NCBI GenBank assembly: GCA_035457825.1
Contig: DATIAY010000171.1
Location: 6,920 to 70,919 of the forward strand
From: Candidatus Methylomirabilota bacterium
GTDB lineage: Bacteria; Methylomirabilota; Methylomirabilia; Rokubacteriales; CSP1-6
Reading direction: 5' to 3'
Length of the DNA: 64,000 bases
The notes beneath the pieces are model-generated. The model did no database searches. It was not told where the DNA came from and saw only the letters and a list, made by a program, of their open reading frames with translations. Shown one piece after another: positions 16,547 through 56,308 of the stretch. Made by a program: the position numbers and the translations under genes. The first letter of the stretch is position 1, and each line of letters begins with the position of its first letter.

Positions 16547-17344
16547 ATGCGCTTGGCCGGCAAGGTCGCGATCGTCACAGGGGGAGGCAGTGGCATCGGG
16601 CGGGGGATCGCCATGGCACTGGCCCGCGAGGGTGCCGACGTGGCCATTCCCGACATCCAGGTTTTGAACGCGGAGAAGGTCTCCGACGAGATCAAGGGGC
16701 TAGGCCGAAAGGCGATGGCCATGAAGGCCGACGTGACCAGCTCCGCCGACGTCAAGACCATGGTCGATCGGACGCGCGAGTCCCTGGGCAAGATCGACAT
16801 CCTGGTGAACAACGCCGGTATGGCGGCCCCCCCGGGCATGCCCTTCACCAACAACACCGAGGACGACTGGGACCGGGCCTTCGCCGTCAACACCAAGTCG
16901 GTATTCCTCACGTGCAAGGCCGTGGCGCCCTACTTCATCGAGCGCAAGGCCGGGCGGATCATCAACATCGCGTCGATCGCCGGGCCGCTCGCGGCCGTCA
17001 CCATGCCGGCCTACAGCGTGGCCAAGCAGGGCGTGATCACGTTCACGCGCGTGGTGGCCAAGGAGCTGGCGGCGCACCGAATCACCGTGAACGCGATCTG
17101 CCCCGGCGTGTTGTGGACGGATTTCTGGCAGAAGCTCGCGGCCCACATCGCGCAGACCAATCCGGCCTTCGCAGGACTGACGCCCCGGCAGGTGTTCGAC
17201 AAGCGGGTCAGCGACATCGTGCCGATGAAATGTGAGCAGGAGCCAGAGGACATCGGCGCGGCTGCGGTCTTCCTGGCTTCAGACGAAGCGCGCTACATCA
17301 CCGGCCAGGCCCTCATGGTCGACGGCGGCTGCGTGATGTGGTAG
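16547..17344 (+). CDS. SDR-family oxidoreductase (FabG-like)
   Basis: TGGGSGIGRG cofactor motif, NNAG, YSVAK catalytic motif. GGAGG RBS 7 nt upstream of the ATG. Confidence 0.85.
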   Translation: MRLAGKVAIVTGGGSGIGRGIAMALAREGADVAIPDIQVLNAEKVSDEIKGLGRKAMAMKADVTSSADVKTMVDRTRESLGKIDILVNNAGMAAPPGMPFTNNTEDDWDRAFAVNTKSVFLTCKAVAPYFIERKAGRIINIASIAGPLAAVTMPAYSVAKQGVITFTRVVAKELAAHRITVNAICPGVLWTDFWQKLAAHIAQTNPAFAGLTPRQVFDKRVSDIVPMKCEQEPEDIGAAAVFLASDEARYITGQALMVDGGCVMW

Positions 17345-17462
17345 TGCGAGCCGAGGCGCGGCGGGCGGCGAGGCGAGCGGTGAGATGGTCGTGGTAGTGC
17401 GAGCTGAGGCGCGCTCGGGCGGCGAGGCGAGCGGTGAGATGATCGAAGTATGCGAGGGATGA
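17344..17462 (+). repeat. 2.5 tandem copies of a 53-nt unit after the SDR gene, forming TAGTG-overlapped mini-ORFs
   Basis: tgcgagc[ct]gaggcgcg...ggcgaggcgagcggtgagatg[ga]tcg..gta recurs at 17345, 17398 and 17451. Confidence 0.6.
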
Positions 17463-17487
17463 TCGACAACCCAAGGTAGGGTCCGGA

Positions 17488-18666
17488 ATGGACTTCGATT
17501 TCACGCCAGAGCAGGAGGCGTTCCGCAAAGAGATCCGACAGTGGCTGGAGCGCACCCTGCCCGACGAGCTGCGCGGGCGGGGTTTTGCCGCATCCCGCGC
17601 CGACCAAGCGGAAGTCCGAAAGTTACGTACTTGGCAGCAGACGATGTACGAGGCCGGCTACGTCGGAATCGACTGGCCGCGCGAGTTTGGCGGGCGCGGG
17701 GCCACGCTCGTCGAGCAAATCATCCTGTACCAGGAGATGGCCCGTGCCGAGTCGCCCCAGCCCGTCAACCGGGGTGGGCTCTCGATGTTGGGCCCCACTC
17801 TGATGAAGTACGGCACCCCGGCCCAGCAGCAGAGATTCCTGCCTCGAATCCTGACGGCGGATGATCTCTGGTGTCAGGGTTTTTCCGAGCCGAACTCGGG
17901 ATCCGATCTGGCCAACCTCCAGACGCGGGCAGTGCGCGAAGGAGATGCGTTCGTCGTCACTGGCCAGAAGGTCTGGACGAGCATGGCTCACGTGGCTGAC
18001 TGGTGCTTCCTGCTCGTGCGGACCGACCCGCAGGTGGTCCGGCACAAGGGCATCAGCTTCCTGCTGGTCGACATGCGATCGCCGGGGATCACGGTGCGCC
18101 CCCTGCGCCAGATGACGGGAGAGGCCGAGTTCAACGAAGTGTTCTTCGACGGGGTGCGGGTCCCGGCCGAGAACCTGGTAGGCCGGCTTAATGAGGGGTG
18201 GTCGGTCGCCATCACCACGCTCGCCTATGAGCGCGACCTCCTCACCTTCATCCGGCATGTCTCGCTTCGCAACGCCGCCCAGCGGCTGGTGCGCCTCGTC
18301 CAGGAGCACGACCGGGCCTCCGAGCGGGCGCTCCGCCAGAAGATCGCAGGAATCTGGATCGGTGAGCAAGCGCTGCAGCTCAACGCCTACCGCAGCCTGA
18401 CGAAGATCCTGCGCGGCGGCCAGCCCGGACCGGAAGGCTCGACGTCCAAGCTCTTCTGGAGCCAGGTGGACCAGGAACTGGCCCAGGTGGCCACCGAGGT
18501 GCTCGGGCCCTTTTCCCAGCTCGCCGGCGGCTCGCCCTGGGCGCGTGACGACGGGCAGTGGGAGTTCTATGCGCTGCTGGCCCAGGCCAGCGGAATTCGA
18601 GCCGGCACATCGGAGATTCTCCGGAACATCCTGAGCGAGCGCGTGCTCGGGCTTCCCAAGGACTGA
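17488..18666 (+). CDS. acyl-CoA dehydrogenase
   Basis: 392 aa; ACAD N-terminal, middle and C-terminal domain motifs (FSEPNSGSD, QKVWTS). Confidence 0.85.
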   Translation: MDFDFTPEQEAFRKEIRQWLERTLPDELRGRGFAASRADQAEVRKLRTWQQTMYEAGYVGIDWPREFGGRGATLVEQIILYQEMARAESPQPVNRGGLSMLGPTLMKYGTPAQQQRFLPRILTADDLWCQGFSEPNSGSDLANLQTRAVREGDAFVVTGQKVWTSMAHVADWCFLLVRTDPQVVRHKGISFLLVDMRSPGITVRPLRQMTGEAEFNEVFFDGVRVPAENLVGRLNEGWSVAITTLAYERDLLTFIRHVSLRNAAQRLVRLVQEHDRASERALRQKIAGIWIGEQALQLNAYRSLTKILRGGQPGPEGSTSKLFWSQVDQELAQVATEVLGPFSQLAGGSPWARDDGQWEFYALLAQASGIRAGTSEILRNILSERVLGLPKD

Positions 18667-18684: not shown

Positions 18685-19467
18685 ATGAGCGATCTGCTCT
18701 ACGAGGTGAAGGATCGTATCGCCACCATCACGTTGAACCGGCCGGACAAGCTCAACGCCTTCACCGGCTCCATGATCGAGGCCTGGGCCCGCTCGCTGGG
18801 CGAAGCCCAGGCTGACGACGCCGTCCACGTCGTCGTGGTCACCGGCGCCGGTCGCGCCTTCTGCGCTGGAGGTGACGTGGGACGCATGGGCCAGGGAGCG
18901 CCCACGCCCCTGGAGCACAAGAACCAGCTCTGGGAAAACATCCACCGCGTGCCCCGGACTCTGGAGGCGATGGACAAACCGGTCCTGGCCATGGTGAACG
19001 GCCTGGCCGTTGGCGCCGGGATGGGCATGTCCCTCATGTGCGACGTGCGGGTGGCTTCGGAGGAAGCGCGGTTTTCGACTGGCTACGTCAAGGTCGGGCT
19101 CGTGCCCGGCGACGGCGACACCTTTTTCCTGCCCCGGCTGGTGGGACCCGCCAAGGCTCTGGAGCTCCTGTGGACGGCGGACTTCATCGAGGCCGCCGAC
19201 GCCCTGCGTCTGGGTATCGTCAACCGGGTGGTCCCGGCGGCGCAGCTTCACGAGACCACGTACGCGCTGGCGCGGCAGATCGCCGACGGCCCGCAGATCC
19301 CGATCCGGATGATCAAGCGCCTCGTCTATCAGAGCCTCCGCCTGGATCTGCGCACGCACCTCGACCTGGTCTCGTCCCACATGGCGGTCGTGCGGCAAAC
19401 AATTGACCATGCCGAGGGCGTCGCGGCATTCAAGGAGAAACGGCCCCCGCGTTTTCAGGGTCGCTGA
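18685..19467 (+). CDS. enoyl-CoA hydratase/isomerase
   Basis: ITLNRPDKLNAF and AFCAGGD crotonase-fold motifs. Confidence 0.85.
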   Translation: MSDLLYEVKDRIATITLNRPDKLNAFTGSMIEAWARSLGEAQADDAVHVVVVTGAGRAFCAGGDVGRMGQGAPTPLEHKNQLWENIHRVPRTLEAMDKPVLAMVNGLAVGAGMGMSLMCDVRVASEEARFSTGYVKVGLVPGDGDTFFLPRLVGPAKALELLWTADFIEAADALRLGIVNRVVPAAQLHETTYALARQIADGPQIPIRMIKRLVYQSLRLDLRTHLDLVSSHMAVVRQTIDHAEGVAAFKEKRPPRFQGR

Positions 19468-54920: not shown

Positions 54921-54924
<4 letters not shown>

Positions 54925-55520
54925 GCCGAGCGCTGCGCCAGGCCCGTGTGGAACGCAAGACGAAGGAGACCGAGGTGGCGATCAGCCTCAACCTCGACGG
55001 CACCGGTGCCGCCAAGGTCGGCACCCCGATCCCCTTCTTCAGCCACATGCTCGAGGCGTGGGCGAAGCACGGCCTCATGGACCTCACGGTGGAAGCGAGT
55101 GGGGACGTCGAGGTGGACATCCACCACACCGTCGAGGATGTCGGCATCGTGCTGGGACAGGCCCTCCGCGAGGCCTTCGGCGACAAGCGCGGCATCGTTC
55201 GCTACGGGACCGCCTTCGTGCCCATGGACGAGGCCCTCGTCGCGGCCGCCGTCGACATCTCGGGGCGCCCGTACCTCGTGTTCAACGTGCCGGTGGCCCG
55301 CACCCGGGTGGCCAACTTCGACCTCGACATGCTCCAGGAGTTCTTCCGGGCCTTCGCCTTCAATGCCGAGATCACCCTGCACGTGACCATGCATTACGGT
55401 CATAACCTGCACCACATCACGGAGGCCGTATTCAAGGCCGTGGGGCGGGCGCTGGCCGAGGCCAGCCGGATCAACCCTCGCATCGCCGACGTTCTGCCAT
55501 CGACCAAGGGACGCCTGTGA
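54921..55520 (+). CDS. hisB: imidazoleglycerol-phosphate dehydratase
   Basis: RKTKETEV N-terminus, and DIHHTVEDVGI / HYGHNLHH metal-binding motifs. Confidence 0.9.
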
Positions 55521-55652
55521 TGGTGGTCGTGCGAGCCGCAGGTGAAGGCGAGGTGAGCCTGTGATGGTGGTCGTGCGAGCCGCAGGTGAAGGCGAGGCGA
55601 GCCGGTGATGGTGGTCGTGCGAGCCGCAGGCGAAGGCGAGGCGAGCCGGTGA
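55520..55652 (+). repeat. three tandem 44-nt units, each a 14-codon mini-ORF (MVVVRAAGEGE-V/A-S-L/R), chained by TGATG overlaps from the hisB stop to the hisH GTG
   Basis: Units read directly at 55520-55564, 55564-55608 and 55608-55652. Period 44 = 45-1. Confidence 0.65.
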
Positions 55653-56308
55653 TCGCAATCATCGATTATGGCCGCGGCAACCTGGGTTCCGTGGAAAAGG
55701 CCTTCCAGCGGGTCGGTGTGCCGGCGACGGTCACCGAGGATCCGCGCGTCGTCGAGGACGCCGAGGCCGTGGTGCTCCCCGGGGACGGGGCGTTCCACGA
55801 CGCGATGGCCAATCTGGAGCAACTGGAGTTGCGGGCGCCGCTGTTGCGCGCCCTGGACGGGCGCCGGCCCTTCCTGGGAATCTGCCTGGGCTATCAGCTG
55901 CTGTTCTCGAGCAGCGAGGAGTTCGGCCAGGGCCGCGGGCTGGACGTCATCCCCGGCGTGGTGCGGCGGTTCCCGGCCGGCCGGAAGGTCCCGCACATGG
56001 GCTGGAATCGCGTCCACGGTGGCGGCGGGCTCCGGCTGTTCGAGGGGATCCCCGACGGCGCCCACTTCTACTTCGTCCACTCTTTTTATCCGGTTGTAGC
56101 GGGGGCCGCAAGCTCGGGTAGGACCGAGGGTGGCCGGCCCCCGGCGGCCGGAGCTCCGGAGGTGGCGTGGTGCGAGTACGGTGTGCGATTCGCGGCCGCC
56201 CTGGAGCGTGGGCGGATCTTCGCGACGCAGTTCCACCCCGAAAAGAGTCAGCGCTGGGGGCTGCGGCTCCTCGAGAACTTTGCCGCGCTCGTGAAGAGCG
56301 GCGGATGA
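55649..56308 (+). CDS. hisH: imidazole glycerol phosphate synthase, glutamine amidotransferase subunit
   Basis: IAIIDYGRGNL N-terminus, catalytic GICLGYQLL and HPEKS. GTG overlaps the last mini-ORF stop (GTGA). Confidence 0.85.
   Translation: MIAIIDYGRGNLGSVEKAFQRVGVPATVTEDPRVVEDAEAVVLPGDGAFHDAMANLEQLELRAPLLRALDGRRPFLGICLGYQLLFSSSEEFGQGRGLDVIPGVVRRFPAGRKVPHMGWNRVHGGGGLRLFEGIPDGAHFYFVHSFYPVVAGAASSGRTEGGRPPAAGAPEVAWCEYGVRFAAALERGRIFATQFHPEKSQRWGLRLLENFAALVKSGG

Follow-up and report, generated by a model that had tools for sequence, protein, structure and literature searches.

A dispersed, non-coding repeat family of the Rokubacteria (phylum Methylomirabilota) was characterized, starting from the spacer between a short-chain dehydrogenase/reductase (SDR) gene and an acyl-CoA dehydrogenase (ACAD) gene in a 64-kb window of Candidatus Methylomirabilota bacterium (Rokubacteriales); all coordinates are positions in this window. 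Based on all analyses, it was concluded that the family is probably a translation-transparent and probably mobile intergenic repeat, analogous to the interspersed repetitive units of mycobacteria (MIRUs). Its units have a defined anatomy with structural covariation in the core, are dispersed and biased in orientation and phase, vary in copy number between strains and occupy orthologous sites patchily. The family is abundant in soil Rokubacteria, and no published description of it was found; the literature search returned no relevant report of Rokubacteria repeats or of MIRU-like elements outside mycobacteria, which is not proof of absence.

The SDR gene (16547-17344, plus strand, as are all features described here for the window) ends with TGC GTG ATG TGG TAG, giving the native C-terminus CVMW, and its stop codon occupies 17342-17344. 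The G of this stop doubles as the first base of a GTG start, which forms a TAGTG junction (17342-17346) and opens mini-ORF1 (17344-17397; VRAEARRAARRAVRWSW and a stop, verified by a reading frame check). A second TAGTG junction (17395-17399) overlaps the stop of mini-ORF1 with the start of mini-ORF2 (17397-17462; VRAEARSGGEASGEMIEVCEG and a stop), which runs from GTG 17397 to TGA 17460-17462 and ends 25 nt before the ACAD ATG at 17488. These two TAGTG-chained open reading frames (ORFs) had been described in a first-pass annotation of the sequence, and on rereading the window all their coordinates were reproduced. A third link had been missed, in which ATG 17459 overlaps the TGA of mini-ORF2 (ATGA, 17459-17462) and opens mini-ORF3 (17459-17479; MIDNPR and the stop TAG 17477-17479). 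The MIDNPR tail was also kept in contig L001. The chain therefore ends 8 nt before the ACAD start. The remaining gap (17480-17487), with a purine-rich AGGG at 17478-17481, resembles the native spacers of 7-10 nt found at empty sites.

Two repeat units underlie this chain, both of them detected by Tandem Repeats Finder, blastn and a covariance model. Unit 1 (17344-17396) is 53 nt long (3x18-1) and consists of a 35-nt core (17344-17378; GTGCGAGCCGAGG..GAGGCGAGC) followed by the 18-nt linker GGTGAGATGGTCGTGGTA, while unit 2 (17397-17450) has a 36-nt core (17397-17432) and the diverged linker GGTGAGATGATCGAAGTA. Tandem Repeats Finder reported the array at 17334-17456 with a period of 54, 2.3 copies, 87% matches and a score of 188, and the likeness of the two units was not due to chance, since blastn-short gave an E value of ~1e-11. 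The units are separated by a 1-nt indel in the core, and the 3' block that they have in common is consequently in a different frame in each. The proposed 53-nt period of the 3n-1 form was thus correct for unit 1, the only clean 53-mer, and did not hold for unit 2. The same entry junction, TAG followed by TGCGAGCC, was found in L007, L013, L016, L019, L020, L029, L036 and L205-L213.

The window contains one further locus of the family, and only one. It lies between hisB (imidazoleglycerol-phosphate dehydratase, 54921-55520, Pfam IGPD), the stop of which (TGA 55518-55520) is overlapped by GTG 55517, and hisH (glutamine amidotransferase, 55649-56308, Pfam GATase), the GTG start of which overlaps the TGA of the last mini-ORF. 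Three 44-nt units (3x15-1) fill 55517-55648 (Tandem Repeats Finder period 44, 96% matches), each composed of GTGATGGTGGTC, a 30-nt core and CY. The corresponding mini-ORFs (55517-55564, 55561-55608 and 55605-55652) are connected by a GTGA overlap at every join. The SDR and his units gave a local alignment score of 47, compared with 16.4 for shuffles, and none of 200 shuffles scored as high. Moreover, a covariance model built from copies of the 51-nt class only, as defined below, matched all five units of the window: 17344-17378 (25.1 bits), 17397-17432 (25.7 bits), 55529-55558, 55573-55602 and 55617-55646. The suggested kinship of the two loci was hence upheld. In related strains, the hisB-hisH junction also carried 44-nt units, with the linker variant GTGATCATGGTC.

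A family unit consists of a palindromic core (GTGCGAGCC...GAGGCGAGC) and a linker of 12-20 nt that holds a stop/start overlap of the TAGTG, GTGA or ATGA type, the total length being 42-68 nt. The core, an extended hairpin, has the conserved ends GCGAGCC and GGCGAGC, which pair with each other on either side of a tandem G.A mismatch. Core lengths fell into classes of ~30, 35/36, 51 and 54 nt. The inner GC-rich stem is variable: copies of the 51-nt class have a long one, those of the 35-nt class a short one and those of the 30-nt class none. In the window, the 30-nt class is represented by the his units and the 35/36-nt class by the SDR units. Across 39 distinct copies of the 51-nt class, 92.5% of the cells were paired, and 36 double-sided changes were counted, compared with 7.6 in shuffles (none of 500 had as many) and no more than 7 in slid controls. 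A second set of 42 distinct copies from unbiased loci showed 96.2% pairing and double-sided changes in 14 of 17 pairs, in an alignment that was fitted to the covariance model and hence biased towards the structure. Folding better than that of shuffles was recorded only in the 51-nt and 35-nt classes.

The linker consensus was ..CTGTGAA..TGGTA directly before GTGCGAGCC. Among 156 distinct units, the dinucleotide TA preceded the core, thereby making TAGTG, in 45 (background frequency of TA 0.011, p ~3e-50), and GGTA did so in 37, the remaining units having GTC, GCA, GCT or GCC at this place. An [AG]TGA motif started 1-2 nt past the 3' block in 72 of the 156. The GAGG of that block stands 6-7 nt ahead of the restart codon and is a plausible, putative Shine-Dalgarno sequence for the restart. 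[quoted passage not shown] The units abut head to tail; a CRISPR array was considered and rejected, because the repeats adjoin directly and unique spacers of similar length are missing. Composite units were also observed, in which the loop of a 51-nt hairpin unit contains a minimal unit with a 30-nt core (L100, L108, L122, L131, L158, L096 and L168). This 90-nt composite recurs in several contigs and stays in frame, because the inner GTGA is mutated (CTGCGTGAG).

The resemblance of the peptides encoded at the SDR and his loci had been taken as a further sign of kinship, and one might suppose that functional micropeptides of the VRAEAR..GEASGE type are the selected product of the mini-ORFs, which are indeed repeated and provided with start codons. 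The similarity was superficial, however. Whether the conserved core falls in frame 0 or in frame 1 depends on its length, and the 1-nt indel between the SDR units alters the whole peptide after six residues, beyond which the two peptides are unrelated. Substitutions at the three codon positions numbered 40/49/58, with no enrichment at the third position, whereas 120 changes fell in 24 paired columns and 27 in 27 unpaired ones. In addition, near-identical strains differed in both copy number and unit type. The conservation is at the level of the nucleotides and the hairpin, through compensatory changes, and not at the level of the peptide. The mini-ORFs were consequently regarded as conduits and not as products, given that the frame varies, the peptides diverge and the changes track the paired columns. 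A selected micropeptide is very improbable, and the peptide likeness is a by-product of conserved nucleotides read in different frames; the predominance of nucleotide conservation leaves the logic of stop/start coupling untouched.

A structured cis-regulatory RNA that controls ACAD expression, such as an attenuator, a riboswitch or a protein-binding leader, would fit the intergenic position upstream of a metabolic gene and the conserved hairpin of the family core. Nevertheless, Rfam 15 gave no match at gathering thresholds in the whole window, a scan of the SDR-ACAD spacer for promoter- or terminator-like sites found none, and this spacer folds no better than shuffles. Furthermore, the genes that the element precedes are unrelated to one another (hisH, one for an ABC ATPase, pssA and one for a B12-binding domain protein), and the copy number of the element varies between strains. 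Such a regulator is accordingly a highly unlikely explanation of the repeat.

Exact stop and start codons were analysed mainly at the SDR-ACAD junction, since homology fixes the ends of both genes there. The synteny of the two genes was kept in L001-L080, and these 80 orthologous loci were found in three states: repeat-free, occupied by this family, or occupied by one of at least three other short repeat families. Repeat-free junctions had a spacer of 4-20 nt or an ATGA/GTGA overlap. In 15 of the 17 spacers occupied by the family (near-identical strains included, which leaves ~10 independent lineages), a strict chain using only -4/-1 overlaps reached to within 15 nt of the ACAD start, when 0.21 such spacers were expected from shuffles. 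In an SDR tree, the occupied sites fell into at least seven clades interleaved with empty ones. The nearest relative of the window, L007 (DATBIM010000050.1), had a 100% identical SDR protein at ~93% nucleotide identity.

Strain-level variation was seen in L205-L213, which share an identical SDR protein and have spacers of 94-152 nt. Their arrays were made up of a single 53-mer, a pair of 53-mers, one 48-nt unit that is read through, a 53-mer with a 48-mer, or another unit of the hairpin type. Except in this last variant (L211), the chain of which ended 6 nt before the ACAD ATG, the chains ended at one common stop 8 nt before this ATG, as in the window and in L007. At a second orthologous junction, where the upstream gene also ends in ..TGGTAG, three contigs carried 1, 3 or 6 units.

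Comparison of the filled site of L016 with its empty sisters L023 and L011 showed that the element lies behind the last sense codon and ahead of the native TGA, which is retained together with its 7-nt spacer. The element provides a new TAG for the SDR gene in L016, and the native stop closes the last mini-ORF. We argue for repeated gain, by mobility or by conversion from other copies, together with slippage-type changes of copy number; both mechanisms are inferred from the patchy occupancy, the L016 comparison, the series of 1, 3 and 6 units and the nested copies.

It had been proposed that the repeat arose by duplication of the SDR terminus, and in its strictest form this would be a purely local tandem duplication, with the likeness to the his units due to chance and no family at all. 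The SDR end, GTGATGTGGTAG, does resemble a unit linker. Yet this end is native, conserved and present in the empty sites as well, the SDR and his units are significantly similar, and copies of the family are present at many unrelated junctions in no fewer than 120 independent contigs, which already refutes a local origin; hardly any credence is left for it. The likeness of the SDR end to the linker is better read as a preferred target, ..TGGTAG.

Other repeats were also present at this junction in relatives. A palindromic element of ~140-180 nt (..GACGGGCGGCGATAAGGGCCCATCTGCTTCGTTGGCTC...CTCGCATCTGGACCCTTCTCGCCGCCCGTGCGAGC), MITE-like in appearance, was located in the SDR-ACAD spacer at ~3796-4050 in L004, L014, L017, L025, L027, L030, L032 and L055, with a strict chain to the ACAD start in 3 of 8 spacers (1.0 expected from shuffles). 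A third family of ~50 nt (CGCGTGTACGCAGGGGAGTCGAGAGGGGGGCGGAGCCCCCTTCTCCCA) was found in the spacer of L038 (4 copies), L041, L043, L046, L048, L052 and L034, and in single-copy form it, too, had an ATGA overlap on either side (caATGAgcc ... cccaATGAac). Phase compatibility may thus extend to more than one repeat family of the Rokubacteria. A deeper clade had an extra small gene with a signal-peptide-like N-terminus between SDR and ACAD (L056, L058-L063, L065 and L068-L072), flanked by CCCCTCACCCTGCCCTCTCCCCTGAGGGGAGAGGGCAGGGTGAGGGG-type palindromes in L056, L058, L059, L061, L063, L065, L068 and L070.

The dispersal of the family was assessed with a flank-free pattern, GTGCGAGCYGMRGN{8,38}GAGGCGAGC, which matched at least 120 metagenome contigs. 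The loci had a mean GC content of 69.8%. Outside the focal spacer the density was ~7 loci in 570 kb, or roughly one locus per 70-100 kb. Three pattern matches in viral contigs looked, judged by their flanks, like chance or in-gene occurrences, and plasmid sequences gave no match to the window spacer. The window itself holds only two loci, but at least 120 further contigs carry the family.

The arrays were mostly oriented with their genes. For 61 arrays the nearest coding regions on both sides shared the strand of the element, compared with 14 for which both lay opposite (p = 4e-8), several of the latter being chance in-gene matches, and the downstream gene was co-oriented in 92 of 117 cases (25 opposite). 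The upstream stop was found at -2 relative to the core (TAG/TG) in 14 of 47 analysable cases and at -11 (GTGA plus 12 nt) in 6 of 47. By the crude codon model used for these contigs, the upstream ORF passed the core start in a further 14 arrays; among them, some had their stop 33-58 nt downstream of the core start, close to the stop of the unit itself, as a C-terminal extension, and others stopped hundreds of nt further on, which was probably a spurious frame call. Exact GTGA..GTGA insertions were seen within the functionally linked, Pfam-verified gene pairs MlaE/ABC ATPase (L182), psd/pssA (L101) and hisB/hisH of the window.

The periods of 46 arrays were distributed as 3n-1 in 23, 3n in 18 and 3n+1 in 5, the excess being significant at p = 0.014 and the deficit of 3n+1 at p = 4e-4. 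The suggested 3n-1 logic is therefore a tendency and not a rule, as the 3n units, which have lost the in-frame stop and are read through, represent a second solution. With stops at fixed core offsets and 3n+1 periods depleted, the copies show a phase bias with respect to the genes around them. The bias in orientation, the fixed offsets, the 15 of 17 chains, the kinship with the his units and the number of contigs together bear out the view of the first-pass annotation that a dispersed family occupies gene 3' ends and junctions with stop/start coupling. Many metagenome contigs ended inside arrays (L214 at 1277-1348, L215 at 619-690, and L088, L089, L097, L104, L149 and L150), and these ends look like assembly breaks at repeats.

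A repetitive extragenic palindromic (REP) type of element (REP, REPIN or bacterial interspersed mosaic element, BIME), spread by a REP-associated tyrosine transposase (RAYT) or an IS200/IS605-like single-strand transposase, or else kept for DNA or RNA roles such as mRNA 3' stabilization or protein binding, is a rival explanation. By that account, the phasing of the ORFs would be the residue of purifying selection at operon junctions and not the purpose of the element. The extended imperfect palindrome with strong compensatory variation agrees with it, as do the copies outside operon junctions and the many copies that start with GTAG, T and the palindrome, comparable with the GT[AG]G head of REPs (PMC2817692); nested insertion in hairpin loops would suit a single-strand DNA mechanism.

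The arrays, however, are all direct repeats. Copies on both strands occurred in only 4 of the 120 listed loci, 84 nt to 2.3 kb apart, and each was oriented with the gene it followed. In L134, for example, one array (60-210) lies on the minus strand and another (2499-2696) on the plus strand, each behind the 3' end of the gene next to it; judged by eye from their translations, these genes look like those of an MFS transporter (minus) and a luciferase-like monooxygenase (plus). Judged by eye from translations, without a Pfam scan, no RAYT- or transposase-like ORF was present between inverted copies; the ORFs found there appeared to encode, among others, an MFS transporter and a proline-racemase-like protein. 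The GTAG head appears in only about a quarter of the units, and a selfish palindrome alone leaves the orientation bias, the fixed abutment to the stop and the depletion of 3n+1 unexplained. A REP-type element was consequently judged rather unlikely as a full explanation, although it is partly compatible with the translation-transparent repeat, as it may describe how the element moves.

For the translation-transparent repeat, the following arrangement was proposed. The unit lies in sense orientation where two co-directional genes meet, directly before the native stop of the upstream gene, and provides this gene with a new stop. The start overlapping the new stop opens a short ORF through the unit, which closes at the next stop/start overlap, and the last ORF reaches the downstream start or stops a few nt short of it, in many cases at the native stop that was retained. 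Ribosomes that finish the upstream gene could in this way be relayed to the downstream gene by termination-reinitiation. Insertion inside operons would be tolerated because such a relay is possible, and unit lengths are mostly 3n-1 or 3n because each overlap takes one frame step or the unit is read through without a stop. Selection on the relay, growth and shrinkage of arrays by slippage or recombination, and colonization of new sites by DNA-level insertion that prefers ..TGGTAG or GTGA junctions are likewise suggested by the arrangement of the copies.

Several points weigh against this proposal, the shared ancestry of some of the 17 occupied spacers being one of them. Translation of the mini-ORFs and reinitiation between them are predicted from sequence. 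A strict chain was present in only 16 of 47 analysable metagenome arrays (6.6 expected), so the coupling is not universal; when reinitiation was allowed from -7 to +15 nt, the chain was present in 36 of 47 (20 expected), some of the shuffle nulls being inflated because terminal overlaps were retained. A stop overlapped by a start is a weak statistic in GC-rich DNA, where any base other than C before TGA qualifies, and since stops are rare and NTGA is common in such DNA, a part of the coupling is cheap. About one quarter of the copies were not between two co-directional genes. The gene context of the metagenome loci was derived from a codon model trained on the window, which is sound for strands and noisy for exact stops and starts. 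These loci were selected by both conserved blocks, and the invariance of the blocks among them is by construction; their origin from Rokubacteria is suggested by the GC content and a few orthologous flanks only. Finally, the RNA of the window spacer was no more stable than shuffles (z = -0.04), and the z values for this spacer and the window's own units ranged from -0.04 to +0.6, the inner stem being degenerate in both SDR units.

The MIRUs, not recognized in the first-pass annotation, are the closest known analogue. MIRUs contain ORFs that overlap the adjacent genes (PMC12548453 and PMC3184786, which summarise Supply et al. 1997) and show tetranucleotide direct repeats and empty and filled sites (PMC3184786). 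At the senX3-regX3 junction of M. tuberculosis (L204), three 77-nt MIRUs (3x26-1) were found, each an ORF with a small internal GC hairpin, joined by ATGA to senX3, to one another and to regX3. The likeness to the Rokubacteria family extends to units of 40-100 nt (42-68 nt in the Rokubacteria), direct tandem arrays, sense orientation and a position at co-transcribed gene junctions, co-transcription being presumed in the Rokubacteria. It also includes a short ORF per unit, a stop overlapping the next start and a 3n-1 length, features that are not universal in the Rokubacteria family. Both have length classes generated by internal segments, an internal GC-rich inverted repeat, copy-number polymorphism between strains (variable number tandem repeats, VNTRs), empty and filled orthologous sites, short direct end repeats and tens of loci per genome.

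The sequences, in contrast, are unrelated: the 77-mer aligned to four Rokubacteria unit classes on both strands with scores of 11-17, compared with shuffle means of 13-16 (p = 0.2-0.98). The host also differs, being Rokubacteria and not Actinomycetota/Mycobacterium. The Rokubacteria family has three junction solutions (the 1-nt TAGTG, the 4-nt NTGA and in-frame read-through), a longer core hairpin with clear compensatory variation, and nested copies. Membership in the MIRU family was rejected on the lack of sequence similarity and on the flanks of the SDR units, which matched only Rokubacteria/Methylomirabilota metagenome-assembled genomes (MAGs). By analogy, then, the family appears to work like a MIRU, yet it is not a MIRU by sequence or host. 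As a side observation, many database entries of M. tuberculosis RegX3 (P0001-P0010) are 245-347 aa long instead of 227 aa, and the RegX3 gene call at 2001-2771 of L204 begins within the MIRU array, the mini-ORFs having been fused to the downstream gene by the callers. The same risk of fusion applies to genes behind Rokubacteria arrays, for example hisH, the frame of which is open far upstream.

Other known systems share fewer features. REP, BIME and REPIN elements are likewise short, GC-rich, extragenic imperfect palindromes of high copy number, often co-transcribed at gene 3' ends (PMC2817692), and a subset of the Rokubacteria units has a GTAG-like head beside the palindrome. REPs, however, form inverted doublets or alternating clusters flanking a RAYT gene (PMC2817692), whereas the Rokubacteria arrays are direct, co-oriented with genes and phase-locked to stop and start codons, and no RAYT was seen at the sampled loci. 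Rickettsia palindromic elements are mobile palindromes that survive in translated sequence by an open frame (PMC3184786), and some Rokubacteria copies similarly extend the C-terminus of the upstream protein (stop at core +33 to +58); the Rickettsia elements insert within genes and join the protein, whereas the Rokubacteria copies are usually separate intergenic mini-ORFs linked by overlaps. The principle proposed for 'ribosome-delivery' ORFs, termination-reinitiation at -4/-1 overlaps (review PMC12548453), is shared as well, but the Rokubacteria ORFs come from a repeated element of variable copy number and not from a unique, locus-specific upstream ORF.

A wider hypothesis was also considered. 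Phase-locked, translation-transparent repeats might form a general, convergent class of bacterial mobile DNA and not a peculiarity of mycobacteria. The present family would then actively target stop/start junctions, inserting directly ahead of the stop at ..TGGTAG or GTGA, perhaps by hairpin-dependent single-strand insertion, and its strain-variable copy number would serve as a rheostat of the translation ratio of neighbouring operon genes. The nested insertions in hairpin loops hint at such a mode of insertion, but the hypothesis as a whole is speculative and was held to be doubtful.

The genes around the focal junction were assigned as follows. The SDR gene (Pfam adh_short_C2, 2e-63) is the first of an SDR-ACAD-enoyl-CoA hydratase operon, since the neighbouring upstream gene, for a dihydroxy-acid dehydratase, is divergent. 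The SDR ORF opens at GTG 16493; its start is most likely ATG 16547, giving a 265-aa product, because this ATG is preceded by GGAGGA and the 265-aa product is recorded in public assemblies (at least 23 contigs), the GTG-16493 version not being on record. The ACAD gene (17488-18666, product MDFDF..) contains the Pfam Acyl-CoA_dh N, M and C domains, and the enoyl-CoA hydratase gene (18685-19467, Pfam ECH_1, 3.5e-62) is the third of the operon. This gene order is conserved across the phylum, and a search with the SDR protein returned matches only in Rokubacteria/Methylomirabilota MAGs. Elsewhere in the window, a nearly perfect 68-nt tandem duplication, unrelated to this family (633-766, 2.0 copies, 98% matches), is preceded by a gene end at ~625 and followed by the next ATG at ~771.

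The arrays call for caution in annotation, as they cause N-terminal over-extension of downstream genes, contig breaks and hidden operon junctions in MAGs. They also offer natural VNTR markers for tracking Rokubacteria strains in soil metagenomes. For decades MIRUs have served in the typing of M. tuberculosis, and for their siting at stop/start junctions, their spread and their possible tuning of operons there has hitherto been only one lineage to study. With an unrelated family of MIRU-like logic in a distant, uncultured soil phylum, this design appears to be a repeatable evolutionary solution. The Rokubacteria family provides a second and much more diverse data set, with its length classes, nested copies, empty and filled sites and strain variants, from which the rules of targeting and the selection on phase can be inferred.

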